From assembly GCA_001791995.1 (NCBI GenBank), contig MGFR01000005.1:26895-90894 (forward strand): DNA of 64,000 nucleotides, in the 5' to 3' direction. The position numbers were made by a program, and so were the translations under genes. Below, one piece after another: positions 5,128 to 16,955 of this stretch (within the stretch, counting starts at the first letter, position 1; the number at the start of each line of letters is the position of its first letter). The DNA is from Candidatus Woesebacteria bacterium RBG_13_46_13. GTDB lineage: Bacteria > Patescibacteriota > Microgenomatia > UBA8517. Under the pieces are notes generated by a model, which had not been told where the DNA came from, did not search any database, and was given only the letters and a program-made list of their open reading frames with translations.

Positions 5128-5841
5128 ATGAGGGTCAAGAATTTTTTTCGTTCTTCTCTATTTAATGACGTACTGGGCATTACCGGCCTAAGGCCTATTA
5201 TCACTGCTTTCAGGGTGTTGTTCAAACTTGAGCGTGATATGGGGCATTTTAAATCTTCTGCGAGGTGGTCCTCTGTCGACAAGTCAGGTAATCCCATACC
5301 TTGGTATTCTTATCCATCAATCGAGTTTCTAAAAACCCTGGATTTACGAAGAAAAAGTGTTTTCGAGTTCGGTTCCGGAAATTCCACTCTATACTTCTCA
5401 ACAAAGGCAAAGAAGGTTACAAGCGTGGAAAGCTCGGAAAGGTGGTATTTAAATATTAAGGAGAAAACCAGAAGAAGAAAAAATGTTACCCTCATTTACG
5501 CTCCATTAAAAAATGGGTACACAAATGCAATCTCTTCTAACAGAGCACGGTTTGACATTATTATAGTCGATGGAGCATTTCGAAAAAATACCGCAACTAT
5601 CGCTCTTAGGAAACTGAAAAGAGACGGTTTTATAATTCTTGATAACGCTGACTGGTTCCCCAATACTGCCGAATTTTTAAGGAGTAGGGGTCTGACGGAA
5701 GTTGACTTTACAGGATTTGGGCCAATCACCCCCTATCGCACTACAACAAGCATGTTCTTTTCAAGGCATACAATATTTAAGTATTTGGCGAAATCCCATC
5801 CTCCAACTCCTATCGGTGGCATCCACCAAATTACTGATTAG
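5128..5841 (+). CDS. SAM-dependent methyltransferase (TylF/CmcI-like class I fold), likely sugar O-methyltransferase
   Basis: Motif I VFEFGSGNSTLYF, then IIIVDGAF... and ILDNADWF. One of only four plus-strand genes. Confidence 0.5.
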   Translation: MRVKNFFRSSLFNDVLGITGLRPIITAFRVLFKLERDMGHFKSSARWSSVDKSGNPIPWYSYPSIEFLKTLDLRRKSVFEFGSGNSTLYFSTKAKKVTSVESSERWYLNIKEKTRRRKNVTLIYAPLKNGYTNAISSNRARFDIIIVDGAFRKNTATIALRKLKRDGFIILDNADWFPNTAEFLRSRGLTEVDFTGFGPITPYRTTTSMFFSRHTIFKYLAKSHPPTPIGGIHQITD

Positions 5842-5952
5842 CTTGTACCTTGAGTAAAACTTCTCCTGCGTATTTTCTCAATTCAGGAAGTGAACAACAA
5901 TAATCCTTAATCTATCAAGTCTGCCCCCAATAAATAGAACTAGAACATACCT

Positions 5953-7092
5953 TCAATTGGATTTTAATGAATGGACTTCTAAGGATTTGATAGTTTTTGC
6001 AACTCTTATCATTTGATTTTCTGTAATTGCTAATCCGGAAGGCAGGTATAGACCTCTAGTTGCGATGTCTTCGGCTATCGGAAAATTTTCAGTTTTATTC
6101 AAATATTTCTTTAACACTGGTTGATCTTTCGGAGGATAGAAGAAATCCCTCGTATCAATACCCTTTTCCTTAAGTCTATCCCTTAACTCATCCTTTGTAA
6201 TTCCGATCTTTTCCGGATCGACCAATACTGAATACATCCAGTAAACGTTGGTTGCGTACCTTTTGGTAATAGGAGTCCTTACTCCGGGAATATCTTTCAA
6301 TAGTAATCCGTAAAGATTAGCCATGTATTGTTTCTTAAGGAGATATTCTTCTACGTGTTCCAACTGGCCACACCCTAAGGCTGCCTGGAGATTTGTTAAT
6401 CGGTAATTAAAACCAACCCCGTCGTGAATAAAACGTTTTTCTGTCGAATGGTGTAAATCTTTAAATTTTCGAGCCGCCTCAGCTAACTTTTCATCATTGG
6501 TCACTACCATTCCACCCTCTCCCGTTGTCACAATTTTGTTCCCATAGAAACTGAAACAGTTAACTACTCCAAAAGAACCTACTTTCTTACCTCTGTAGGT
6601 GGCACCATGAGCTTCTGCCGCATCCTCGACAACAAAGAGCTTGTGCTTTTTTGCAATCTTCATTATCGGGTCCATATCTGCGGGATGTCCATAAATGTGT
6701 ACCGGCATTATGGCTTTCGTCTTTTTTGTAATTTTTTTTTCAATCAGTTTCGGGTCAATGCAATAAGTTTCGGGCTCACAGTCCACAAAAACAGGTTTGG
6801 CGCCGACAAATATTACTGCCAGCCAAGAGGCGGCCATGGTAAAGGCGGGGATAATTACTTCATCTCCGGGGCCTATTCCCAAAGAAAGAAGGGCTACGTG
6901 TAGTGCTGCAGTACCGTTAGAAACCGCTACCGCGTATTTTGTTCCGATATACTCTGCGAACTTCTCTTCAAAAAGGCCTACATACTTCCCGGCAGAGGAG
7001 ACCCACCCCGTATTGAGAGCGTCATTGACGTAAATCTTTGCTTCCTCGGAAATTACTGGTTCGTTAACTGGAATGAAATCATCCATGTTCAT
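5953..7092 (-). CDS. DegT/DnrJ/EryC1/StrS-family PLP-dependent sugar aminotransferase
   Basis: Strong family signature: DEVIIPAFT, HIYGHPADMD, VVEDAAEAHGATYRGKKVGSFG, and FYGNKIVTTGEGGMV (a K within 'FYGNK' is the likely PLP lysine). Confidence 0.85.
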   Translation of the reverse strand: MNMDDFIPVNEPVISEEAKIYVNDALNTGWVSSAGKYVGLFEEKFAEYIGTKYAVAVSNGTAALHVALLSLGIGPGDEVIIPAFTMAASWLAVIFVGAKPVFVDCEPETYCIDPKLIEKKITKKTKAIMPVHIYGHPADMDPIMKIAKKHKLFVVEDAAEAHGATYRGKKVGSFGVVNCFSFYGNKIVTTGEGGMVVTNDEKLAEAARKFKDLHHSTEKRFIHDGVGFNYRLTNLQAALGCGQLEHVEEYLLKKQYMANLYGLLLKDIPGVRTPITKRYATNVYWMYSVLVDPEKIGITKDELRDRLKEKGIDTRDFFYPPKDQPVLKKYLNKTENFPIAEDIATRGLYLPSGLAITENQMIRVAKTIKSLEVHSLKSN

Positions 7093-7498
7093 GCTTTCTG
7101 TAGATTTTTGCCTTTTTTTCTCCGGGGTAAGGTCCTTGCTTTATTTCGATTAGTCTGCTCTTTTTAAGAATTTTCAAACCATGCCCTCCTGAAATAAAGA
7201 GAATAAAATCACCCGCTGAAAGAATTACCGATTTTACCTTTCTCCACTGCTCCGAATAAAGGTTCACGCGTACTTTGCCTTTTTCCAAATATAGGAATTC
7301 CTGCGTGGTATCCACCTTGTACTTGATATCTTGTCGGTGAATATGGTCTCTAATTATTTTGCCCGCGGGGTGCTCGATAAGCCCCAATTGAAGCGTATAG
7401 TCATCGGGGGTAAGAAAATTGACTCCATCTGCCCCTAGTTCCTTTCGAAAGATGTGGGCAATTACCTTACCTTTATATTCAATTGTTTCTTGTAGCAT
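7079..7498 (-). CDS. small cupin-fold protein (WxcM/WbuC-like, sugar-nucleotide modifying accessory protein?)
   Basis: 139 aa; cupin motif HPAGKIIRDHIH...; sits between the DegT aminotransferase and a GT4. Confidence 0.4.
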   Translation of the reverse strand: MLQETIEYKGKVIAHIFRKELGADGVNFLTPDDYTLQLGLIEHPAGKIIRDHIHRQDIKYKVDTTQEFLYLEKGKVRVNLYSEQWRKVKSVILSAGDFILFISGGHGLKILKKSRLIEIKQGPYPGEKKAKIYRKHEHG

Positions 7499-8735
7499 TT
7501 TCGTCTTTAAAATCTTTTAGCACACCACTTATTGTCCTTTCAAAGTCTTTATTGTCCCAAAGTTTGAGTCTTTCCCTCCCCTTCCTTGCTAAGTCTTTCC
7601 TTAATTTTGGACTAGTATAGACCTTAAGAATTCCATCGGCAATATCTTTTGGATTCTTTGGATTAATTAAAAGGCCTGCATTTCCTAATTGTTCTCTACA
7701 CCCCCTGATATCAGAATAAAGAACCGGTGTTCCCATGGTCCACGCCTCATATACGGGAATATTTGTTGGCCCTAATAAGGTTGGCATAACCATTGCGGTA
7801 GCATTTTTGTATATTACAGATAGCTCTTCATTATCAACATACCCGAGATAAATGATATCTTTCTCAAGTTTATTATTCTTGATAAATTTTATGACCTCTT
7901 CAAAAGTACTATAATCTGCTGCTTTTGAGCCTGTAAGAATTAACTTAATGTCTATGTGTTTTGTCTTTAATTGTTTGACAGCTTTTATCAAATTTATATG
8001 GTTTTTATGCGGCCAGAATTTTGCGGGGTAAAAAATATAAGAATCTGGAAGATTAAGTTTCTTTAATATATTCCTTTCTTGGTTTCTTGTAATTTTGATG
8101 TTTAAATAAGATGGCGGAATATAGGGAAGAACCACAATTTTATCGGTCTTGATTTTATAATATCGTTTCAAATTTTCCTTTAATGTACCTGAGTCTACAA
8201 ATATCTTGTACGCTTTTCGGGAAACATTAGTAAGACCATATTCACGGTATTCCCATCGACCACCTGCGGTTGCTTCTTTAAGCTTAGGTTTGTTTCTGTG
8301 ACCTAAGTCGTAAACGGTAACAACCGAAGGAATATCGACAAGAAAAGATAAATAAGTTAACGAAGGGAAAAATATGATATCCAGTTTGTGCTTTCCCAGA
8401 AGTGCAATCAAGCCTCGCTGGCTTATTTTATAGAGAAACTCTATTAATGGGAAAAGGCCCATTTTGTAAACAAAAGAAAAAAAATTAAAAGGGAGATTCC
8501 CCAAGATATTCGAAATCAATCCTCTTAATAGATATAGATTCCTTGGAGACTTACTATAGAGGTTTATTAATCTGACGTTTTTCCTCTTAAAAATATCTTG
8601 TGGATAATCTGGGGAAACCGAGTAGATGAAGTATTGATTATTTGGAATCTTTACTAAAGCCTCCACCATCGACACGCAATATTGATAGGCGCCACCTTGG
8701 CTTTTTTGGGGAGTAAAGAATATACCAACTCTCAT
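7479..8735 (-). CDS. GT4-family (GT-B) glycosyltransferase
   Basis: C-terminal GT-B half with ...ILTGSK..., YLGYVDNEEL, PTLLGPTNIPVYEAWTMGTPVLYSD (E-x7-E-like). Confidence 0.6.
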   Translation of the reverse strand: MRVGIFFTPQKSQGGAYQYCVSMVEALVKIPNNQYFIYSVSPDYPQDIFKRKNVRLINLYSKSPRNLYLLRGLISNILGNLPFNFFSFVYKMGLFPLIEFLYKISQRGLIALLGKHKLDIIFFPSLTYLSFLVDIPSVVTVYDLGHRNKPKLKEATAGGRWEYREYGLTNVSRKAYKIFVDSGTLKENLKRYYKIKTDKIVVLPYIPPSYLNIKITRNQERNILKKLNLPDSYIFYPAKFWPHKNHINLIKAVKQLKTKHIDIKLILTGSKAADYSTFEEVIKFIKNNKLEKDIIYLGYVDNEELSVIYKNATAMVMPTLLGPTNIPVYEAWTMGTPVLYSDIRGCREQLGNAGLLINPKNPKDIADGILKVYTSPKLRKDLARKGRERLKLWDNKDFERTISGVLKDFKDENATRNN

Positions 8736-9502
8736 TTAGTTTTTCTTGCTACCACGAAGATGTCCCACTTGTCGTCTGCAATTTTGGATTTTACCTCAAG
8801 AAAATTTGATACGTTTACCAATTCAAAACCCGCTTTCTCCAAAAAGTAACCAAGTTCGGGAATTGACCAGAATCTCATCGGGTGAACTTCTGTAACAACA
8901 TCTTTAAGCTCCGAGCCGACGATATCCATTACCTTAAACGAAATTTCAATTAGATTTTTTTCTAAATAGAGCTTGGAAGAAGTTAATCTGACGATATGTC
9001 TATCCCCAATAACTAACTCCTTAATCCGGTCGGTCGGACGATCCTTTAGAACAGCAGGTCCGTGCCAACAATCAAACATTAATAATCCCCCAATGTTCAA
9101 GCTTCTGTTTACGTTTTTAAGCATATTTTCAAACTGTTTATTTTCTGTCTGGTAACCAACTACATTAAACATAGATATTCCGCAGTCGAACTTACGTGAG
9201 GCTTTAAACTTACCAACATCTGCTTTTGTTAGTTGAACCCTTTTCCCCAACCTTTGTACGTCGATCTTCTTTTGAAAGGCCGACAGCATTGTCTCCGACC
9301 TGTCTATTCCTAAAATCTGATACCCTTTTTTTGCTAGTAAGACTTCGTGGTTTCCAGAACCGCATCCCAAACTGATGATGCTTGCTGCTTTTTTCTTGGA
9401 AAATCTTTTTATCATCTTCTGAATAAAATGAACCTCCTCGGGGTAATTCTTGTCCCTATATATCAAATCGTAGTATTGGGAATATTTGCCAAAATTACTC
9501 AT
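8732..9502 (-). CDS. class I SAM-dependent methyltransferase
   Basis: Motif I ISLGCGSGNHEVLLAKKGYQILGIDRSETML; 4-nt overlap with the upstream gene. Confidence 0.75.
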   Translation of the reverse strand: MSNFGKYSQYYDLIYRDKNYPEEVHFIQKMIKRFSKKKAASIISLGCGSGNHEVLLAKKGYQILGIDRSETMLSAFQKKIDVQRLGKRVQLTKADVGKFKASRKFDCGISMFNVVGYQTENKQFENMLKNVNRSLNIGGLLMFDCWHGPAVLKDRPTDRIKELVIGDRHIVRLTSSKLYLEKNLIEISFKVMDIVGSELKDVVTEVHPMRFWSIPELGYFLEKAGFELVNVSNFLEVKSKIADDKWDIFVVARKTK

Positions 9503-9999
9503 TTGCGTACTTTCCTCGATGAAATAAACTCGATATTGTTCCCATCTGGGTCCTTAGCATAGACCATATATCTTCCTTTATTCGGACCTGCTGGAATAAC
9601 AAGCGGATCGGAAATAATTAATCCACCTTGAAGCTTAAAACGGACGATGAAGTTTAAAAAATCATTAACTTCAAAACAGATATGTGCACTTCCTATGTTA
9701 TTTGTGGCGCTGTTTAGTTTTTTACCTTTTGGGTTAACGTATTCCACCAATTCGAGGTAACAATTCTCACCTTTTAAGTAGGCGATTTTCAGATGAGCAT
9801 TGGGTATCCCAGTGGCCTTACCCGCAAAAGAAGATTTTCTGTCAGAAATATCCATCAAGATAAGATTACATGCGGTTTCATAAAATCTAACAGATTTTCG
9901 CACACTACCTACCGTATAGCTTAAGTGATTTATTTTGTTAGGCATCCTGGTAGGTAAGGGTCTCGCTTTTGAGTAAACTAGCACAATTCTTTCGACCAT
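9499..9999 (-). CDS. VOC-family (glyoxalase/bleomycin-resistance fold) protein
   Basis: Beta-alpha-beta-beta-beta modules (INHLSYTVGSVRKSVRFYE..., GSAHICFEVNDF..., DPDGNNIEF). Real start is probably the internal ATG near 9945 (MPNKINHL...), giving a short overlap with the cyclase gene. Confidence 0.6.
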   Translation of the reverse strand: MVERIVLVYSKARPLPTRMPNKINHLSYTVGSVRKSVRFYETACNLILMDISDRKSSFAGKATGIPNAHLKIAYLKGENCYLELVEYVNPKGKKLNSATNNIGSAHICFEVNDFLNFIVRFKLQGGLIISDPLVIPAGPNKGRYMVYAKDPDGNNIEFISSRKVRK

Positions 10000-11080
10000 A
10001 AGGATATTCCTCGATAAAGTTTTTTAAGAAATTCCTAGCTTTTCTCGGTTCCAGCTTATAGAAAAAGGAGTCTTTGCTCCTATACGGCACGCCGATGTCT
10101 CTGAGAAGTACTAAATTTAAATATTTTCCTGTCGATTTCTTGTCACGCATCATAATCTTTAACAAATCGTCTACATCAAGGTTTTTCTCAACATAAATGT
10201 TGAGGCCAAGCTTTTTCATCATGGAAATAATATTTTCCACCGAAGAAGATTTGGTTAATCCCATCATCTTTCCAAGCTCAAGGGCAATTACACTACCGGC
10301 CGAAATGGCGTCGCCGTGAAGAATTCGATAATTACTGAGCTTTTCAATAGCGTGGCCAAAAGTATGCCCGAGATTACTAGCCTGGGGATGCACTTTCCTA
10401 ATCGTTATTCTAACCCTGATTGTTTCTTCTATCATCGAGGTTAAATCGCTTTTCTTTCTTGATTTGATATACCAACCCATCGTCGTAATCAATTTTTTCG
10501 ATCCCAAAAGGCCATATTTAAAGACTTCCGATAAACCCTGGCGGTGAAAGTGGGGCAGATTGGTATCTAAGAAATAGATATTGCAATAAACGAAAAGTGG
10601 ATAATAGAATGTCCCCAATAAATTTTTCGAGTATTCTGTATTTAAGCAGGTTTTACCTGCCGTTGAGGCGTCAACCATTCCGATTAATGTAGTCGCAATT
10701 ACTGCAAACGGTAACCCTCGCATATAGGTTGAGCAGGTAAAACCGACCAAATCGATAACCGTTCCTCCACCAACACAAATTACTAAATCGGCAAGGTTAC
10801 AATTATTTTTTTCTAAAAAGGAGACTAATTTAGGGTAGAAGGACAAAGATTTACTTGCTTCATTGGCGTTTACTTCGAATGTGATAATTTCTTTCTTGTG
10901 TCGCTTGAGCTGTAATCTTATTTTTGTCCCATAAATTCGTTTCACCTTCCTGTCTATTACCAATATCATTCGATTATATTTCTCGGAGTTGAAATTACCA
11001 ATCCAGCCCATTTTGGGCTTATCGTCGATAATAAACTCTATTCTGTTTTTTGTATGATAGGTTGTTTGTAAAGTTTTCAT
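9938..11080 (-). CDS. 3-dehydroquinate synthase-family sugar-phosphate cyclase (DHQS/EEVS/DOIS superfamily)
   Basis: Aligns by eye with AroB: VICVGGGTVIDLVGFTCSTYMRGLPFAVIATTLIGMVDASTAGKTCLN...NLLGTFYYP versus [46 protein letters not shown]...NMIGAFYQP. Later ...LGHTFGHAIE... metal-binding His pair. Confidence 0.8.
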   Translation of the reverse strand: MKTLQTTYHTKNRIEFIIDDKPKMGWIGNFNSEKYNRMILVIDRKVKRIYGTKIRLQLKRHKKEIITFEVNANEASKSLSFYPKLVSFLEKNNCNLADLVICVGGGTVIDLVGFTCSTYMRGLPFAVIATTLIGMVDASTAGKTCLNTEYSKNLLGTFYYPLFVYCNIYFLDTNLPHFHRQGLSEVFKYGLLGSKKLITTMGWYIKSRKKSDLTSMIEETIRVRITIRKVHPQASNLGHTFGHAIEKLSNYRILHGDAISAGSVIALELGKMMGLTKSSSVENIISMMKKLGLNIYVEKNLDVDDLLKIMMRDKKSTGKYLNLVLLRDIGVPYRSKDSFFYKLEPRKARNFLKNFIEEYPYGRKNCASLLKSETLTYQDA

Positions 11081-11083
11081 TTT

Positions 11084-11842
11084 CTATTTTTGGTCAAGGT
11101 TTTGAACAAGTAGTTTACCACCAGATATTTCAACATCGGCACCGGTGATGTATGCGGATGCTTCAGACGCAAGAAATAAAATGCCCTTTGCCACATCTTC
11201 CGGTTTTCCTACTCTTTTCATAGCTATCTGAGAAGTTACCACCTTGCTTTTTTCGCGAGCAAGTTTTTTTGTCATGTCTGTAAGAATAAATCCCGGAGAA
11301 TAGGAATTTACTCTTATTCCATATTTTGCCCATTCGGCAGCCATAATTTTTGTAAGGCCAAGTACGGCAATTTTACTCACCGAATAAACGCTTCTATTAA
11401 GAGACGGTATTTTTGCTGCCAAGGAACCAGCATTAATTATTACACCATGTCTGATTTTTCTCATGTGTTCTGCAATTTTTTTTGAGGCAAAAAAAAGAGA
11501 TTTAAGATTTGTATTCATAATCATATCCCACTCTTCTTCTGTGGTATTCGATAGCAAACCTTCGGGGTATATCCCTGCGTTATTTATCCAAATATCTATA
11601 TCTTTTTTTTGGGTAAACTCTGAGATCCATTTTTCAATTCCTGCGATATCATTGACGTCCAGCGTTACCGATAGAAAATTTTTAGATCGAATATTTACAG
11701 GTTTGGTCCTTGATAAATTTACCACTGACGCCCCTGCGTCAAGAAAGGCACTGGCAACGGCATTACCGATTCCCCTCGAGGCTCCGGTTATTACAACGGT
11801 CTTTCCTCGAAAATTGTATTTTATTTCTGGGCTTTTTTTCAT
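11084..11842 (-). CDS. SDR-family NAD(P)-dependent oxidoreductase
   Basis: TVVITGASRGIGNAVA (TGxxxGxG), NNAG, catalytic YSVSK (YxxxK). Confidence 0.85.
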   Translation of the reverse strand: MKKSPEIKYNFRGKTVVITGASRGIGNAVASAFLDAGASVVNLSRTKPVNIRSKNFLSVTLDVNDIAGIEKWISEFTQKKDIDIWINNAGIYPEGLLSNTTEEEWDMIMNTNLKSLFFASKKIAEHMRKIRHGVIINAGSLAAKIPSLNRSVYSVSKIAVLGLTKIMAAEWAKYGIRVNSYSPGFILTDMTKKLAREKSKVVTSQIAMKRVGKPEDVAKGILFLASEASAYITGADVEISGGKLLVQNLDQK

Positions 11843-13170
11843 TTTTGTAAATACAGATGGACATCCCCAACCCCGGTTCCGGTTGGTTTCATTTTGATTA
11901 ATGAACCCAACTTTGAATGAAAAACATAGCTATCATTGTTTTGCAGATATTTTTCGACTTTCAGCTTCATAAGCGAAATCCTTTCCAAATCTTCGTTGTC
12001 AACCATCGCGCCCCCAATGCCCTTGATGAAATCGATGCCGTCAGTCCCCAAACCAGCCATGACAAATCTTTTCTCCTTAGGCAATTTTTTGGTCAAATTA
12101 GCAACAAGCTCCTGATTCCTTCCTCCCCTTCCTGTCCCTTTTACCTTCACCGAAATCTCACTATTAAATAATATTGCGATAGGCCTAGAGCTATCTTCTG
12201 ACAAGGCCCTTATTATAGAGGCAATTTTTTCGGACGCAAAATCCATTTTCCCCACAACCGGGGGTTTATTAATAATCACAGCATATCCTAACTCTTTGGC
12301 CCTTTTGGCCATGGCTGATAGAGCAGTTGTCGAATCGGCCAAAATATAATTGTGGACATTTTTAAATATTGGGTCCCCTGGTTTAGGAGTCTCATCGACT
12401 TCTCCCCGAACTCCCTTTTTCAGATGACGCTTGATTGATCCAGGAATTTTGCTATAGAGACTATGTTTCCTCAAAATTCTGTCTGCGTCTGAATAGGTAG
12501 AAGTGTCGGGCTCCGTGGGACCGCCGGCAACAACATCCTTGGGGTCAATGAGGTCAGAGATGGTTATGCATATTATTCTCGCCGGCTGAAAACTTTTAGC
12601 TAGCTGTCCTCCCTGAATTCGAGAAAGGTGTTTCCTAACTATCTGAATTTCCCTCGTAGGAACACCTCCTTTGGTCATTAATTCGACAGTTTTCCGCATA
12701 TCCCCAAGCGATATGCCTTCCTGGGGAGAAAACATGGATGCGGATCCACCTCCCGAAAGCAAGCAGATCACCGTGTCTTCCTTGTCAATTCTTGTCGCAG
12801 CCTTCAATATTGTTTCCATTCCTCTTATTGCCCCCGCCGATGGCAGCGGATGGGTTACTTTTTGTATCTTAATCTTGGTCGTTTTAACAACGTTCGGAGA
12901 ATTGACTAACCCGAAGTATATCTTTCCTTTTGGAAATTTCTTTTCCAATTGACTAGCCATATTGGCTGAAGCTTTTCCGCCCCCGATTATAAATAACCTT
13001 CCTTTGGCCAAATCAAACCTATCCCCTTCGATAATGAGCTTATTGTTTTGATAATGTATTTTTCCCGATATCGCCACCGCTGGGGTTACACTTATGAGTC
13101 CTGCCTTAAGGATATCCAAGGCCTCCTTTTTTAAACCTTTGGAATATTTTGAACGAAAGATATCTTTCAC
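11839..13170 (-). CDS. MOFRL/DUF4147-family kinase (glycerate 2-kinase GckA-like)
   Basis: N-terminal IIGGGKASANMA; C-terminal MOFRL signature KGTGRGGRNQELVANL and GTDGIDF. Confidence 0.7.
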   Translation of the reverse strand: MKDIFRSKYSKGLKKEALDILKAGLISVTPAVAISGKIHYQNNKLIIEGDRFDLAKGRLFIIGGGKASANMASQLEKKFPKGKIYFGLVNSPNVVKTTKIKIQKVTHPLPSAGAIRGMETILKAATRIDKEDTVICLLSGGGSASMFSPQEGISLGDMRKTVELMTKGGVPTREIQIVRKHLSRIQGGQLAKSFQPARIICITISDLIDPKDVVAGGPTEPDTSTYSDADRILRKHSLYSKIPGSIKRHLKKGVRGEVDETPKPGDPIFKNVHNYILADSTTALSAMAKRAKELGYAVIINKPPVVGKMDFASEKIASIIRALSEDSSRPIAILFNSEISVKVKGTGRGGRNQELVANLTKKLPKEKRFVMAGLGTDGIDFIKGIGGAMVDNEDLERISLMKLKVEKYLQNNDSYVFHSKLGSLIKMKPTGTGVGDVHLYLQK

Positions 13171-13886
13171 TTGATAATTTTTAACAGTTTGTTTTCGGCG
13201 ATTGTCAAATCATTCTGGTCGTCTATTTCCTGCCACGGGATACCTTTAATGTCCAATACAAAAAGGTGTTCCGTCTTAAGAAATTCTTTAATGGGCTTTT
13301 CAATCTGTACTCCTTCTCCCCTCGCTTTTTTCACTACATCTTCGGCAATCTGGAAATATTTCAGGGCTCCCTCTTTTGAAAACTTATACATCCCCAAAAC
13401 TCGTTTACTCTTCTCTTTTAGTCCCCTCCCCATTTCAAGAACTTGATGCCCTTTTATCCTGACATTCATCGAATTTGTTTCCACGACCCCAGATGAGTCA
13501 ACCACGGTAACGTTTTGACGTGGATCTTTGATTAACTTGGTTAAAATCTTTTTATTAAACAGAACGTCTCCATTAACAAGAATGAATTCGCCATCCAGAT
13601 CCTTCCTCGCTATGAATAAAGAGTTTAAGTTGTCGGTAGAAGAATATTTCTTGTTCAGTCGATAAATTAATCGACATTGATTATATTTTTGTCCGAGTAT
13701 TTTTCTAAACATCGTCCCCCTATAACCCACCACGACAACGACCTCGCTAAACCCCATCTCTGAAAAATTATCTAATAAGTAAGCAATTAGCGGTTTACTT
13801 CGGATACGAACTAAAGATTTGGGGCAATTTTTTGTATAAGGGAGAAGTCGCCTCCCTGTTCCTGCTGCCAAGATTACTGCTTTCAT
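13167..13886 (-). CDS. sugar/polyol-phosphate nucleotidyltransferase (NTP_transferase fold; LicC/IPCT/ValB-like cytidylyl- or guanylyltransferase)
   Basis: MKAVILAAGTGRRLLPYTKNCPKSLV (G-x-G-T-R-L motif), ...LVNGDVLF... Confidence 0.8.
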   Translation of the reverse strand: MKAVILAAGTGRRLLPYTKNCPKSLVRIRSKPLIAYLLDNFSEMGFSEVVVVVGYRGTMFRKILGQKYNQCRLIYRLNKKYSSTDNLNSLFIARKDLDGEFILVNGDVLFNKKILTKLIKDPRQNVTVVDSSGVVETNSMNVRIKGHQVLEMGRGLKEKSKRVLGMYKFSKEGALKYFQIAEDVVKKARGEGVQIEKPIKEFLKTEHLFVLDIKGIPWQEIDDQNDLTIAENKLLKIIK

Positions 13887-13991
13887 CGAATAATATACCT
13901 CTTACAATGCTATAGAATACTAAATTATCCAGGCTATAACAAATAAGGCCCTGCGTAGACAAAATAGGAAGCCAGTGATAACATCTTCGTT
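13887..13991. promoter_or_regulatory. divergent intergenic region (105 bp) between the nucleotidyltransferase operon (-) and the GAPDH-like/CDP-alcohol phosphotransferase pair (+); probable bidirectional promoter
   Basis: One of only three non-coding gaps over 90 bp in the window. AT-rich with -10-like hexamers (tagaat, tacaat). Confidence 0.3.
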
Positions 13992-15038
13992 ATGAACAAG
14001 CTTAGAATAGGCATTAATGGGTTTGGGCGTATCGGTCGGGCAATATATCGGATAAACCACCTCAAACATTTATTCGATATTGTAGCAATCAACGACATTA
14101 ATCCAGATAATCACAACATAGCTTATCTTCTTCAATATGATTCCACCTACGGTAAATTTCCCGAAAAAGTCCGAGACGATAAAAAGCATTTAATGATCGG
14201 GGGTAAAAAGATTTACGTATATCATCAGGATAATATTTCCGACGTGCCCTGGGACAAACACGGTGTGGATATCGTAATAGAAAGTTCAGGGGTAAGGACA
14301 AATTTAGACAATTTGGATAAGCTACGAGACAAAATTAAAAACGTAATAGCAACGTATGATCCCGGCAATATTGCTAAAAGCATTATTCTTGGGGTTAATG
14401 AAAAATCTGTAAACCCTTCTACTAATTTCCTATTCTCTGCTAGCATTTGCGATGCCGTGGCTCTGGCTCCTATTGTAGATATCATCCTCAAATCAAATAA
14501 TATAGTATCGGGTTTTTTAACGACAATTCATCCTTGGTTATCATATCAAAACCTTCTTGATGGTCCATCTAAATCGTGGACGCATCCTGGAGATGTTTTT
14601 TCCCATTATGCTTTAGGAAGATCTTCTGTCTCGAATATTATCCCCAAATCGACTTCTGCTGTCCAAGCAACTGAAAAAGTTATACCTAAATTAAATAATA
14701 AGATAATATCTTTTTCTTTCCGTAGCCCGACAAACATCGTCTCGGGCGCAGTGCTCACCCTATTACTTAAAAAACCAACTACGTATAACAGGTTCGTTTC
14801 GATATTTAAGAGATCTGAAAAAAAGCAAAAATATAACATTTTAAAGAATTCTGTCGAGCCATTAACTTCGATTGATTACATAGGAGAAGAGTATTCTGCA
14901 ATAATTGATCATCGGTGGACGAAGGTCAACAACAAACGGCACGTGGAATTAGTCTATTGGTATGATAATGAATGGGGCTACGGCAATAAAGTGATAGAAT
15001 TAATTTCTTTGATAGGCAAAAGGTACAAATCTAGATAA
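13992..15038 (+). CDS. divergent glyceraldehyde-3-phosphate dehydrogenase-family dehydrogenase (GAPDH/E4PDH-like)
   Basis: INGFGRIGR Rossmann motif, YDSTYGKF, catalytic region SASICDAVALAP (Cys retained with a one-residue insertion relative to ASCTTNCLAP), TTIHPW (His retained), VSNIIPKSTSAVQA, WYDNEWGYGNKVIELI. Confidence 0.8.
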   Translation: MNKLRIGINGFGRIGRAIYRINHLKHLFDIVAINDINPDNHNIAYLLQYDSTYGKFPEKVRDDKKHLMIGGKKIYVYHQDNISDVPWDKHGVDIVIESSGVRTNLDNLDKLRDKIKNVIATYDPGNIAKSIILGVNEKSVNPSTNFLFSASICDAVALAPIVDIILKSNNIVSGFLTTIHPWLSYQNLLDGPSKSWTHPGDVFSHYALGRSSVSNIIPKSTSAVQATEKVIPKLNNKIISFSFRSPTNIVSGAVLTLLLKKPTTYNRFVSIFKRSEKKQKYNILKNSVEPLTSIDYIGEEYSAIIDHRWTKVNNKRHVELVYWYDNEWGYGNKVIELISLIGKRYKSR

Positions 15039-15042
15039 TCAT

Positions 15043-15801
15043 ATGAACAAAGTGCCCTCAGTTAAAGAACTGTATAAAAAAATAAGTAAAAATGTTCTTA
15101 CCCCCAATACCGCATTCACTTACGAATTGTGGTATTCCCGACTTATCGGAAGACGGCTTTCAATATACTTTACGTGGTTATTTCTTCATACAAACCTCAG
15201 CCCAAATAATGTCACATTAATCCACACCATTTTTAGTCTAGGCGGATCTGCCTTGTTAGCCATACCCAATAAGACAGCTCTTCTTGTTGGCGCACTTTTC
15301 TTTAACCTCTATCTTATCTTAGATAGCACCGACGGTGAGATGGCAAGGTATAAGAAACAAACAAGTGCATTGGGTGGCTATCTCGATACTCTCTCGCACA
15401 TCGCAATTTACGGCACATTATATCTTGCACTTGGTGTTAATCTTTACTTAAGAACGGGTAATGTTTGGGCTGTCTCGATGGGAACAGCCACCGCGTTTTT
15501 CTTCGCTTTTGCTTCAGCCGTACATCACCTTGATCCTCTCTTAAACAAGATGTCTTATCTAAAGATGAGGGAACGAGAAAATAAACTCATTTTCATATCT
15601 ACTAATATTTATCAGTTTGTAACCGAAGATTTAACAATTGTGGCGTATATCCTCATCTTTGGATTACTTGGTTATCCTAAAATACTCGGTTACGACCCAT
15701 ACACTCTTTTTCTATACCTGAATTTCTTTGCGATTGTGTTTGGGGGAATTCTATTTAATATTGTGAAGAAAATCATGGATCCGAGATACCATAGATCTTA
15801 A
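15043..15801 (+). CDS. CDP-alcohol phosphotransferase-family integral membrane enzyme
   Basis: DSTDGEMARYKKQTSALGGYLDTLSH matches D-G-x2-A-R-x8-G-x3-D-x3-[D->H]. About 6 TM helices. 4-nt convergent overlap with the minus-strand GT4. Confidence 0.6.
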   Translation: MNKVPSVKELYKKISKNVLTPNTAFTYELWYSRLIGRRLSIYFTWLFLHTNLSPNNVTLIHTIFSLGGSALLAIPNKTALLVGALFFNLYLILDSTDGEMARYKKQTSALGGYLDTLSHIAIYGTLYLALGVNLYLRTGNVWAVSMGTATAFFFAFASAVHHLDPLLNKMSYLKMRERENKLIFISTNIYQFVTEDLTIVAYILIFGLLGYPKILGYDPYTLFLYLNFFAIVFGGILFNIVKKIMDPRYHRS

Positions 15802-16955
15802 TCCTCCTTTTGCCTTACAGAATAAATACTTTTGAGAATGGCTTCGACCAACTGATCGATTCCGAAAGAGTTAATTATTCTACGACTCTCCATGCCAAAT
15901 CTTACTCTTTTCGATCGATCCTTAAGTAATTTTTCTATTGCAGTAACCATTTTATTAATATTTCCCGAAGGGAATATATATCCATTGACCCCGCTCTTTA
16001 TCAAATCCGCTCCAGCTCCAACCTTATCCCCTGTAATTACCGGTAGACCGCTAGCCATTGCTTCATTAATAACCATCCCCCAGGTTTCTTCTCTGGATGG
16101 TAAAACAAAAATATCAGAAATTCCGTAATATTTTGGTAATAATTTATTGTCCACGAAGCCTGTTAGGATTACCTTTTTTGTTAATCTATTATCTCTAATA
16201 TATTTTTCTATTCCTAACATTTCCATACCGTAGCCAACCATTAACAAGGTCGCATTCGGAAATGATAATAGAATCTTCTTGAAAGCTTCAAGCAAGTCGT
16301 AAACACCTTTCCTTATAATTAGTTGGCCATTAAACATCACAACTCTGTCTTTGGGGCCGATGCCCAACTTTTTTCTCAGTGCTACCTTTTCCGCCCAACT
16401 GGCTTTTGAAACTAGAGAGAAAAGCTTAACATCTATTGCCGAATATCCGACAAATATTTTTTCCTTTTTAGCCCCCAATTTAACTAGGTAGTTCTTGGCT
16501 CTTGTCCCCGCAGCAATATAAGCATCGGCACAATTAACCATAAATTTCGTTAGAGGCATAAACACTTTTCTTCTCCAATTATCTTCGTAAACTGTGCTTT
16601 CGGAACGGAGAATCAGTTTTTTACCGAACAGTTTGCAATATATTGCCGATACATATGATGGAAAGTCTGCCCAACCCGGGGCAATAACAACATTCGGCTT
16701 TGAAATTAGCAATTTTTTCAAAAAATTGAAGGAAACAGTAAATGGAATATAGTCATTTTTCCCAAAAGGTATATCGAAGGATTTCAGGATCTGGTATTTA
16801 AATTTGATGGTTTTTCGGTTAACCTGCCACCTTCTATTTTTCGCAGATATGGAATAGAAAAAAACCATAAGATCTATTCCTGGTTCCCTAGAGAGATCCT
16901 TTAAAATGGGGATTGCCCGGGGAGGAATAGTCGGGTTAAGAAGAAGAACTTTCAT
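15798..16955 (-). CDS. GT4-family glycosyltransferase
   Basis: PSREETWGMVINEAMASGLPVITGD (EX7E motif); GT-B layout. Confidence 0.8.
   Translation of the reverse strand: MKVLLLNPTIPPRAIPILKDLSREPGIDLMVFFYSISAKNRRWQVNRKTIKFKYQILKSFDIPFGKNDYIPFTVSFNFLKKLLISKPNVVIAPGWADFPSYVSAIYCKLFGKKLILRSESTVYEDNWRRKVFMPLTKFMVNCADAYIAAGTRAKNYLVKLGAKKEKIFVGYSAIDVKLFSLVSKASWAEKVALRKKLGIGPKDRVVMFNGQLIIRKGVYDLLEAFKKILLSFPNATLLMVGYGMEMLGIEKYIRDNRLTKKVILTGFVDNKLLPKYYGISDIFVLPSREETWGMVINEAMASGLPVITGDKVGAGADLIKSGVNGYIFPSGNINKMVTAIEKLLKDRSKRVRFGMESRRIINSFGIDQLVEAILKSIYSVRQKED

Follow-up and report, generated by a model that had tools for sequence, protein, structure and literature searches.

A 64,000-nucleotide stretch of DNA from Candidatus Woesebacteria bacterium RBG_13_46_13, referred to here as the window, encodes at positions 13992..15038 of its + strand a 348-residue protein, P0001, which has the fold of glyceraldehyde-3-phosphate dehydrogenase (GAPDH) and falls in a branch of that family that we call the Cys-Asp clade. 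We propose, at a probability of roughly 0.6, that P0001 is an NAD+-dependent, non-phosphorylating aldehyde-phosphate dehydrogenase of an Epd-like kind, and that it acts within a cassette making a nucleotide-activated hydroxy-acid for a surface glycan or lipid. The more general statement that P0001 is a non-glycolytic enzyme belonging to this cassette is very likely. The evidence comes from a canonical gap gene elsewhere in the genome, from a set of clade-wide changes in the active site, and from six genes that travel together across phyla.

P0001 is a paralogue of the housekeeping enzyme

The P0001 gene is a single open frame opposite a strand rich in stops, and its product carries the Pfam domains Gp_dh_N (E 1.7e-32) and Gp_dh_C (E 1.7e-28). 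A phmmer search of the PDB returned GAPDHs only, at 30-37% identity. The AlphaFold2 model, for which the input alignment comprised 65 homologues, has a mean predicted local distance difference test score (pLDDT) of 94.5, falling to 73-76 only at residues 181-210, and Foldseek superposed it on solved GAPDHs with TM scores of 0.91-0.95 at no more than 37% identity. All of the GAPDH hallmarks listed in an earlier note on this DNA (INGFGRIGR, YDSTYG, Cys153/His180, SNIIP and WYDNEWGY) are found in the translation. P0001 is a real open reading frame (ORF) with a confident GAPDH fold, and it is not the housekeeping enzyme.

The host genome (711 kb in 5 contigs, 98% complete) contains two loci that match TIGR01534, namely a canonical gap gene at G000:C1:86655-87668, which scores 374 bits and exceeds the cut-off of 367.2, and P0001, which scores 250 bits and falls under it. 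The canonical Gap carries SNSSCTTNCVAP, TTIHGYTDDQ and LRRARAA. The earlier note had read P0001 as a paralogue rather than as housekeeping Gap and had proposed searching the genome for a second, canonical gap, and the gene found here bears that reading out. The same note would have taken P0001 for the glycolytic enzyme had it been the sole GAPDH homologue with canonical phosphate-binding residues; it is neither the sole homologue nor, as described below, canonical at those residues. A transketolase gene lies close to the canonical gap gene in this reduced genome (G000:C1:84058-87668).

P0001 also scores under the cut-off of every NCBIfam GAPDH, Epd and ArsJ-GAPDH model. The Epd models TIGR01532 and NF010058 give 186 and 190 bits against cut-offs of 530 and 539, and the model of ArsJ-associated GAPDH, NF033735, gives 212 bits against 450. 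No ArsJ-type transporter was found among the neighbours of P0001, which are glycan genes, and an ArsJ-GAPDH identity was rejected on the score and on this absence.

The catalytic dyad is kept and the phosphate sites are altered

Residues were mapped on an alignment of P0001 with three reference enzymes, namely GapA and Epd of E. coli and the canonical Gap of the host genome, such that Cys153 and His180 of P0001 correspond to Cys149 and His176 of GAPDH. In GAPDH numbering, P0001 retains Cys149, His176, Thr208, Arg231, Tyr311, Asn313, Glu314, Tyr317 and the Asn-Asp pair of the NAD site, and it has the NAD-binding GxGxxG motif (INGFGRIGR) and its Asp. Given that the Asn-Asp pair of the NAD site is retained, NAD+ is the likely cofactor. 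The substitutions are S148I, T150D, T151A, N152V, C153A, T179L, D181Y, R195L and G209S.

A published review assigns Thr179, Thr181 and Arg231 to the substrate-phosphate (Ps) site and includes Ser148 in the inorganic-phosphate (Pi) site (PMC12041015). The Pi site, comprised of Ser148, Thr150, Arg195 and Thr208-Gly209, reads Ile, Asp, Leu and Thr-Ser in P0001, so that four of its five residues are altered, and these changes are invariant or nearly so across the Cys-Asp clade. In the Ps site Arg231 is retained, Thr179 is replaced by Leu, and residue 181 is Tyr. Of these two sites, which the earlier note had singled out for inspection, the Pi site is non-canonical by alignment, and the Ps site appears to be so in part. 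Residue 179 is hydrophobic in P0001 (Leu) and in Epd (Met), and the T179M change in erythrose-4-phosphate dehydrogenase (E4PDH) appears to be important for its larger substrate (PMC12041015). The Asp at position 150, invariant and directly beside the catalytic Cys, may serve as a water-activating base.

The catalytic loop of P0001 reads SASICDAVALAP and lacks the second Cys. The earlier note had described an altered loop with a one-residue insertion and loss of the second Cys; the altered sequence and the lost Cys stand, and the insertion does not, as it depends on the alignment and MAFFT aligns SNSSCTTNCVAP with SASICDAVALAP without a gap. Because the alignment is gapless and the Ser four residues ahead of the catalytic Cys is conserved in both families, the change is better read as S148I than as an insertion. 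The note's extra segment in the S-loop is likewise real but was placed on the wrong residues. The catalytic His and the S-loop Arg are 30 residues apart in P0001 and 20-21 apart in canonical enzymes, which makes the S-loop 9-10 residues longer; the inserted residues are approximately KSWTHPGDVF, and SHYALGRSS, which the note took for the insert, aligns with the canonical HKDLRRARAA. In the S-loop, R210 of P0001 is invariant and lines up with Arg197 (B. stearothermophilus numbering); Arg195 is lost, as A-L-G occupies positions 194-196. A D-x-R-W motif stands where canonical enzymes have a D-A/L-x-x segment.

The Cys-Asp clade is a large branch of class I GAPDHs

A word-index search produced 8000 scored relatives, of which the best 120 are 50-70% identical to P0001 and include several annotated as 'glyceraldehyde 3-phosphate dehydrogenase' or 'aldehyde dehydrogenase', and an exhaustive search recovered 11,852 proteins at E <=1e-3. 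Among 121 full-length cluster representatives, about 90 share S-x-S-[IT]-C-D, HPWL, the enlarged S-loop, IPKxT and DxRW. The full signature of the clade (S-x-S-[IT]-C-D, H-P-W/Y-L, an enlarged S-loop before L-G-R, I-P-K-x-T, D-x-R-W and Arg231) is complete in P0001, and nearly all of the 120 best homologues and about 100 cluster representatives share its features. Across the 65 aligned sequences, C153, D154, H180, L183, Q186, G209, R210, K219, T221, R244, D306 and the YDNE block are invariant (P0001 numbering).

In a maximum-likelihood tree of 140 rows, about 100 Cys-Asp proteins form one clade with a Shimodaira-Hasegawa-like approximate likelihood-ratio (SH-aLRT) support of 93, rising to 97 when three transitional sequences with C-T-G-N and HPVL motifs are included. 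This clade is nested within class I GAPDH with E. coli Epd outside it, and P0001 is sister to the protein of another Woesebacteria locus, L003, with support of 97. The phylogeny with GAPDH and Epd that the earlier note had suggested thus sets P0001 in a separate branch, which is, on sequence grounds, a large unnamed clade of class I GAPDH distinct from Epd. A 2025 review of aldehyde dehydrogenase superfamilies counts as GAPDH-like only GapDH I, GapDH II, E4PDH, Asd, ArgC, LysY and malonyl-CoA reductase.

Two relatives are enlarged. P0261 (593 aa), a GAPDH-like protein of the transitional type, is fused to a HAD phosphatase, a fusion suggesting that the lineage works on phosphorylated substrates from which the phosphate is later removed. 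P0149 (623 aa), of the Cys-Asp type, is extended at its C terminus by about 280 aa without a Pfam match.

A six-gene cassette is conserved across glycan loci

Gene contexts of relatives were taken from 16 genome loci with GAPDH-like identities of 34-62%, drawn from Woesebacteria, Nitrospinia, Nanoarchaeia, Epsilonproteobacteria, Peregrinibacteria, Lachnospiraceae, Gammaproteobacteria, Desulfobacteraceae, Burkholderiales and Margulisiibacteriota, and neighbours were compared between loci by tblastn and all-against-all clustering. The Margulisiibacteriota member proved to be a canonical outlier. Nine of the 16 related loci, spanning seven phyla, carry the cassette with the GAPDH-like gene. In the window, the other five genes of the cassette lie on the - strand and encode a VOC/glyoxalase-fold protein (9499..9999, Pfam Glyoxalase), an AroB-like enzyme of the 3-dehydroquinate synthase (DHQS) family (9938..11080), a short-chain dehydrogenase/reductase (SDR; 11084..11842, Pfam adh_short_C2), a MOFRL/DUF4147 kinase of the class II glycerate 2-kinase family (11839..13170, Pfam DUF4147 and MOFRL) and a sugar/alcohol-phosphate nucleotidyltransferase (13167..13886, Pfam NTP_transferase).

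The window, L004-L008 and L010-L012 share the AroB-like enzyme (42-54% identity), the VOC protein (34-46%), the SDR (40-46%) and the nucleotidyltransferase. All six genes are adjacent in the window (9499..15038), L005-L008 and L010-L012; L004 is cut at a contig end, and L003, whose contig ends just upstream, has only a kinase fragment and a CDP-alcohol phosphotransferase. The order kinase, nucleotidyltransferase, SDR, AroB-like, VOC, GAPDH-like is cyclically conserved, with the VOC gene always after the AroB-like gene. Every cassette locus for which flanks were tabulated is a glycan locus, and the glycan setting in which the earlier note had placed P0001 is accordingly one that its cassette keeps across phyla.

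The kinase slot is occupied by MOFRL/DUF4147 in the window and L003, both from Woesebacteria, and by the unrelated Gly_kinase family (PF02595, TIGR00045) in L005-L008 and L010-L012. The window kinase scores 177-178 bits, below cut-off, against the NCBIfam glycerate 2-kinase models. To our knowledge, all characterised members of both kinase families act on glycerate. This non-orthologous displacement is the strongest clue to the chemistry, as it points to a phosphorylated intermediate with a glycerate-like head.

The AroB-like partner and the distribution of the cassette

The AroB-like protein scores 251 bits against TIGR01357, under the cut-off of 305, and is the only AroB homologue in the genome. 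All eight members of its family that were compared lack six residues ahead of the NLGHTFGH motif of AroB, including an Arg that we take to bind the carboxylate of 3-deoxy-D-arabino-heptulosonate 7-phosphate (DAHP), and all eight have a C-terminal extension of about 40 residues that E. coli AroB does not have. The family retains the NAD, Zn and phosphate motifs. By score, true DHQS (120-149 bits) is a closer match to the protein than DDGS, EEVS and DOIS (66-90 bits), and where a genome encodes the shikimate pathway, it has an AroB of its own at 29-32% identity. Neither DAHP synthase I nor chorismate synthase, nor any other shikimate pathway gene, was found in the host genome; a housekeeping AroB for aromatic amino acids was rejected on this and on the sub-threshold score. 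No PdxJ gene turned up either in this genome, which is 98% complete. Therefore, given that shikimate genes and PdxJ were not found, neither the role of AroB nor that of Epd in pyridoxal phosphate (PLP) synthesis applies.

A close homologue of P0001 was found in one of 301 sampled Patescibacteria genomes and in none of three genomes of the same family. Four other Patescibacteria matches, at 36-41% identity, were set aside as canonical SCTTN GAPDHs. Searching metagenome contigs with the AroB-like protein yielded only two short loci, and among 351 Lachnospiraceae genomes the AroB-like and GAPDH-like genes both occur only in one known carrier, which, as a single case (n = 1), is consistent with joint inheritance. 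Given this sporadic distribution, the cassette appears to be accessory and to have moved horizontally as a module.

A proposed route to an activated hydroxy-acid

Non-phosphorylating oxidation of an aldehyde is, on balance, the probable reaction of P0001. The enzyme would form the usual Cys-thioester, and hydrolysis would then release the free carboxylate irreversibly; release by hydrolysis is favoured because the Cys/His/NAD chemistry is intact and the attacking-phosphate site is replaced by Ile, Asp and Leu. The analysis establishes the paralogy, the residue changes, the clade, the conserved cassette and the kinase displacement; for the route we infer which way the reaction runs, that the thioester is hydrolysed and not phosphorolysed, what the substrate is, how the steps are ordered and what is made. 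That Arg231 is retained, that one relative is fused to a HAD phosphatase and that residue 179 is hydrophobic together suggest a phosphorylated aldose longer than glyceraldehyde 3-phosphate, and a substrate resembling erythrose 4-phosphate (E4P) is the best guess given that residue 179 is hydrophobic as in Epd; a cyclitol precursor, which the earlier note had also offered, is less favoured. E4P is, as far as we know, the only common aldose phosphate barred from furanose or pyranose closure, its 4-OH carrying the phosphate. Because E4P cannot ring-close and the transketolase encoded in the genome is part of a supply route, it is the leading candidate, although its assignment as the actual substrate is tentative.

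In the proposed sequence of steps, the GAPDH-like enzyme would oxidise an open-chain aldose phosphate, E4P, to 4-phosphoerythronate, on which the AroB-like enzyme would carry out transient C2 oxidation, beta-elimination of phosphate and re-reduction. The VOC protein may then catalyse a ketol isomerisation or epimerisation, the SDR would reduce the keto-acid to a glycerate-like dihydroxy-acid (a 3-substituted glycerate), and the glycerate-kinase homologue would phosphorylate it. The nucleotidyltransferase would convert the product to a nucleoside diphosphate derivative, probably of cytidine diphosphate (CDP), from which a CDP-alcohol phosphotransferase or TagF-like enzyme would attach the phospho-acid to a surface glycan or lipid. 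ATP-grasp enzymes, where present, could amidate the acid product. A carboxylate is suggested by the ATP-grasp genes, which encode carboxylate-activating enzymes and adjoin the GAPDH-like gene in several loci. Phospho-hydroxy-acid decorations of glycans do exist, since the O-antigen of Providencia alcalifaciens O22 contains D-glyceramide 2-phosphate, a 2-hydroxy-acid linked to the glycan by a phosphodiester (PMC6222762).

The likely product of the six-gene set is an activated, acidic phosphate group that decorates the cell surface. A fully specified version of the route is speculative: E4P would be converted to 4-phosphoerythronate, the AroB-like enzyme would be a non-cyclising phospho-lyase, and a C4 dihydroxy-acid of the 2,3-dihydroxybutanoate type would be 2-phosphorylated by recruited glycerate kinases, CDP-activated and installed as a phosphodiester-linked envelope decoration in candidate phyla radiation (CPR) bacteria, DPANN archaea and some gut Lachnospiraceae. 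If true, the DHQS family would gain a new reaction, that of a non-cyclising phospho-lyase.

Weighing the alternatives

The cassette could instead make a nucleotide-activated cyclitol, in the manner of acarbose or validamycin, from sedoheptulose 7-phosphate or another keto-sugar phosphate, with the GAPDH-like enzyme in a side role such as oxidation of an exocyclic aldehyde to a quinate-like carboxy-cyclitol. The AroB-like, VOC, SDR, kinase and nucleotidyltransferase genes correspond by type to AcbC, AcbO, AcbN, AcbM and AcbR; the nucleotidyltransferase and the CDP-alcohol phosphotransferase are nearest to IPCT/DIPPS and PIP/AIP synthases; and the presence of transketolase makes C7 sugar phosphates plausible. 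We nevertheless consider this route unlikely, as the AroB-like protein is closer to DHQS than to DDGS, EEVS and DOIS, the kinase slot is filled by two unrelated glycerate-kinase families, the ATP-grasp genes adjoining the GAPDH-like gene point to a carboxylate, and a plain cyclitol route offers no aldehyde to a thiol-dependent dehydrogenase. Improbable, too, is that P0001 works reductively, converting an acyl phosphate or activated acid to an aldehyde for the AroB-like enzyme, or that its thioester is passed to an amine in an oxidative amidation. GAPDH chemistry is reversible, ATP-grasp enzymes that make acyl phosphates adjoin the gene in four loci, and amide-linked hydroxy-acids are known on glycans; however, the anion site that would hold the phosphate is dismantled and carries an Asp, the cassette has no PGK-like kinase forming an acyl phosphate, and ATP-grasp genes are absent from the window and L004-L006.

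Far less credible are the two readings that would assign P0001 a known housekeeping function. If P0001 were a phosphorylating GAPDH of glycolysis, whether the ordinary or a back-up one, whose gene just happens to neighbour a glycan locus, it would have the expected fold, catalytic Cys and His, and NAD site, but the canonical gap elsewhere in the genome, its score of 250 bits against a cut-off of 367, the lost Pi site, the single close homologue among 301 sampled genomes of the phylum and a cassette linkage conserved in seven phyla make this very improbable. An Epd orthologue serving PLP biosynthesis, which the hydrophobic residue at 179 would fit, can be practically dismissed, given the low scores against the Epd models, the position of Epd outside the Cys-Asp clade, Tyr311 in P0001 where Epd has Cys, the failure to find PdxJ in the genome, and a gene context that is a glycan locus.

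Several points nonetheless weigh against a non-phosphorylating dehydrogenase in a hydroxy-acid cassette. The pairing of an AroB-like enzyme with a VOC protein is typical of C7-cyclitol pathways such as that of EEVS with its VOC epimerase; a nucleotide-activated cyclitol as product would, for its part, give no explanation for the GAPDH-like step. Loss of the Pi site disfavours phosphorolysis, yet an acyl acceptor other than water is possible. The steps could also run in another order, with the AroB-like enzyme making a de-phosphorylated keto-aldehyde on which the GAPDH-like enzyme then acts, and the Proteobacterial copies, in a context of DASS transporters, indicate that the GAPDH-like enzyme is not tied to one cassette. 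Literature searches on the gene combination found no paper on the clade or the cassette.

Relation to known systems

Epd/GapB (E. coli b2927) is, like P0001, a class I GAPDH paralogue with Cys149, His176, Arg231 and a hydrophobic residue at 179, and it turns an aldose phosphate from outside glycolysis into the acid with no acyl phosphate formed, as we propose for P0001. In contrast to P0001, which has I148, D150, L195, Y311 and an insert of 9-10 residues, Epd keeps S148, T150, R194/R195 and the SCTTNC loop, has Cys311 and lacks the S-loop insert, and it serves PLP synthesis, for which PdxJ was not found in the genome of P0001. GapA (TIGR01534) shares with P0001 the fold, the NAD site, the catalytic dyad and WYDNEWGY; P0001 differs from it by its low identity, its lost Pi site, altered Ps site and enlarged S-loop, and by coexisting with a canonical copy.

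The cassette as a whole resembles several activation pathways. As in the TarI/TarJ and Bcs1 systems, a reductase and a nucleotidyltransferase occur together, and in L006 (4873-6387) the two are fused into one 504-aa protein with the architecture of a Bcs1-type CDP-ribitol synthase. Synthesis of coenzyme F420 (CofA/CofB/CofC) proceeds through an aldehyde dehydrogenase, a hydroxy-acid, a 2-kinase, nucleotidyl activation and phospho-transfer, via 2-phospho-lactate; the logic is similar, although the dehydrogenase and kinase families differ and the AroB-like and VOC proteins have no counterpart there. C7-cyclitol pathways (AcbC/ValA, AcbO/ValD/CetB) likewise combine a DHQS-family enzyme, VOC protein, SDR, kinase and nucleotidyltransferase, whereas in the cassette the kinase is of the glycerate-kinase type, the GAPDH-like enzyme is an obligate partner and the setting is a glycan locus rather than an antibiotic cluster. 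IPCT/DIPPS and the PIP and AIP synthases are the nearest curated models of the split nucleotidyltransferase and CDP-alcohol phosphotransferase pair, but the window pair scores far below cut-off, a motif Asp is replaced by His, and the cassette has no gene for an inositol-phosphate synthase.

GAPDH is among the most heavily studied enzymes, yet here is a large branch with a rebuilt anion site and no assigned reaction, and the cassette provides a means of putting right the many metagenomic annotations that read 'glyceraldehyde-3-phosphate dehydrogenase'. A mobile cassette in ultra-small bacteria, archaea and gut Firmicutes suggests a widespread, chemically undescribed surface decoration, for which the six genes provide a short list of testable enzyme activities.

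Flanking genes and minor observations

The nucleotidyltransferase gene is divergent from the P0001 gene across a 105-bp intergenic region (13887..13991), and a CDP-alcohol phosphotransferase gene (15043..15801, + strand, Pfam CDP-OH_P_transf) begins 4 nt downstream of P0001, an arrangement that agrees with the gene placement described in the earlier note. One promoter-like site, a consensus match only, lies on the + strand at 13956-13984, and a scan of 13700-16100 revealed nothing resembling a terminator. Co-transcription of P0001 and the phosphotransferase is suggested by this result and by their 4-nt spacing. The nucleotidyltransferase is nearest to models of the archaeal GlmU N-domain and IPCT, and the phosphotransferase to DIPPS, AIP synthase and PIP synthase, with scores far below cut-off for IPCT, DIPPS and the two synthases; the phosphotransferase motif reads DGx2ARx8Gx3Dx3H, with His in place of the last conserved Asp. 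A homologue 48% identical follows the GAPDH-like gene in L003, and the window phosphotransferase is the probable transferase for the cassette product. The 3' end of its gene overlaps a convergent gene for a glycosyltransferase of family 4 (GT4; 15798..16955) by 4 nt.

At lower coordinates on the - strand of the window are genes for an S-adenosylmethionine (SAM) methyltransferase (8732..9502; Pfam, tblastn 31% identity to L006 14035-14787), a GT4 glycosyltransferase (7479..8735; Pfam, tblastn 35% identity to L006) and a DegT/LegC-family sugar aminotransferase (5953..7092; Pfam, NCBIfam TIGR04181 at 357 bits). Across loci, the cassette is flanked by CDP-alcohol phosphotransferases (window, L003, L007), a TagF-like glycerophosphotransferase (L006), LPG-synthase-TM proteins (L004, L007), phosphatases (His_Phos_1 in L005, PHP in L010) and LegC-type aminotransferases (window, L006, L007, L010, L011), and an ATP-grasp ligase directly adjoins the GAPDH-like gene in L007, L008, L010 and L011. 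L010, from Lachnospiraceae, holds a complete NeuB/NeuC/PseF-like nonulosonic-acid set, with a NeuB-type synthase, NeuC-type epimerase, PseF-like cytidylyltransferase and LegC-type aminotransferase around the cassette (5675-6691 and 14069-15960).

In L011 (Firmicutes bacterium CAG:95, ~9000-12850) the gene of the glycerate kinase is broken into two ORFs, as is that of the AroB-like enzyme, and in L007 the AroB-like match (6380-7513) contains one in-frame TAA; these may reflect decay of the cassette or assembly errors. The Gammaproteobacteria and Burkholderiales copies (L009, L014-L017) fall in the same 21-row subclade and lie in a different operon (2383-10125 in L009), which comprises two DASS/CitMHS transporters with N-terminal domains binding cyclic nucleotides, two proteins without a family (~348 and ~238 aa), and then the GAPDH-like protein and an NMT1_3 solute-binding protein. 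This operon may serve uptake or catabolic use of the same chemistry.

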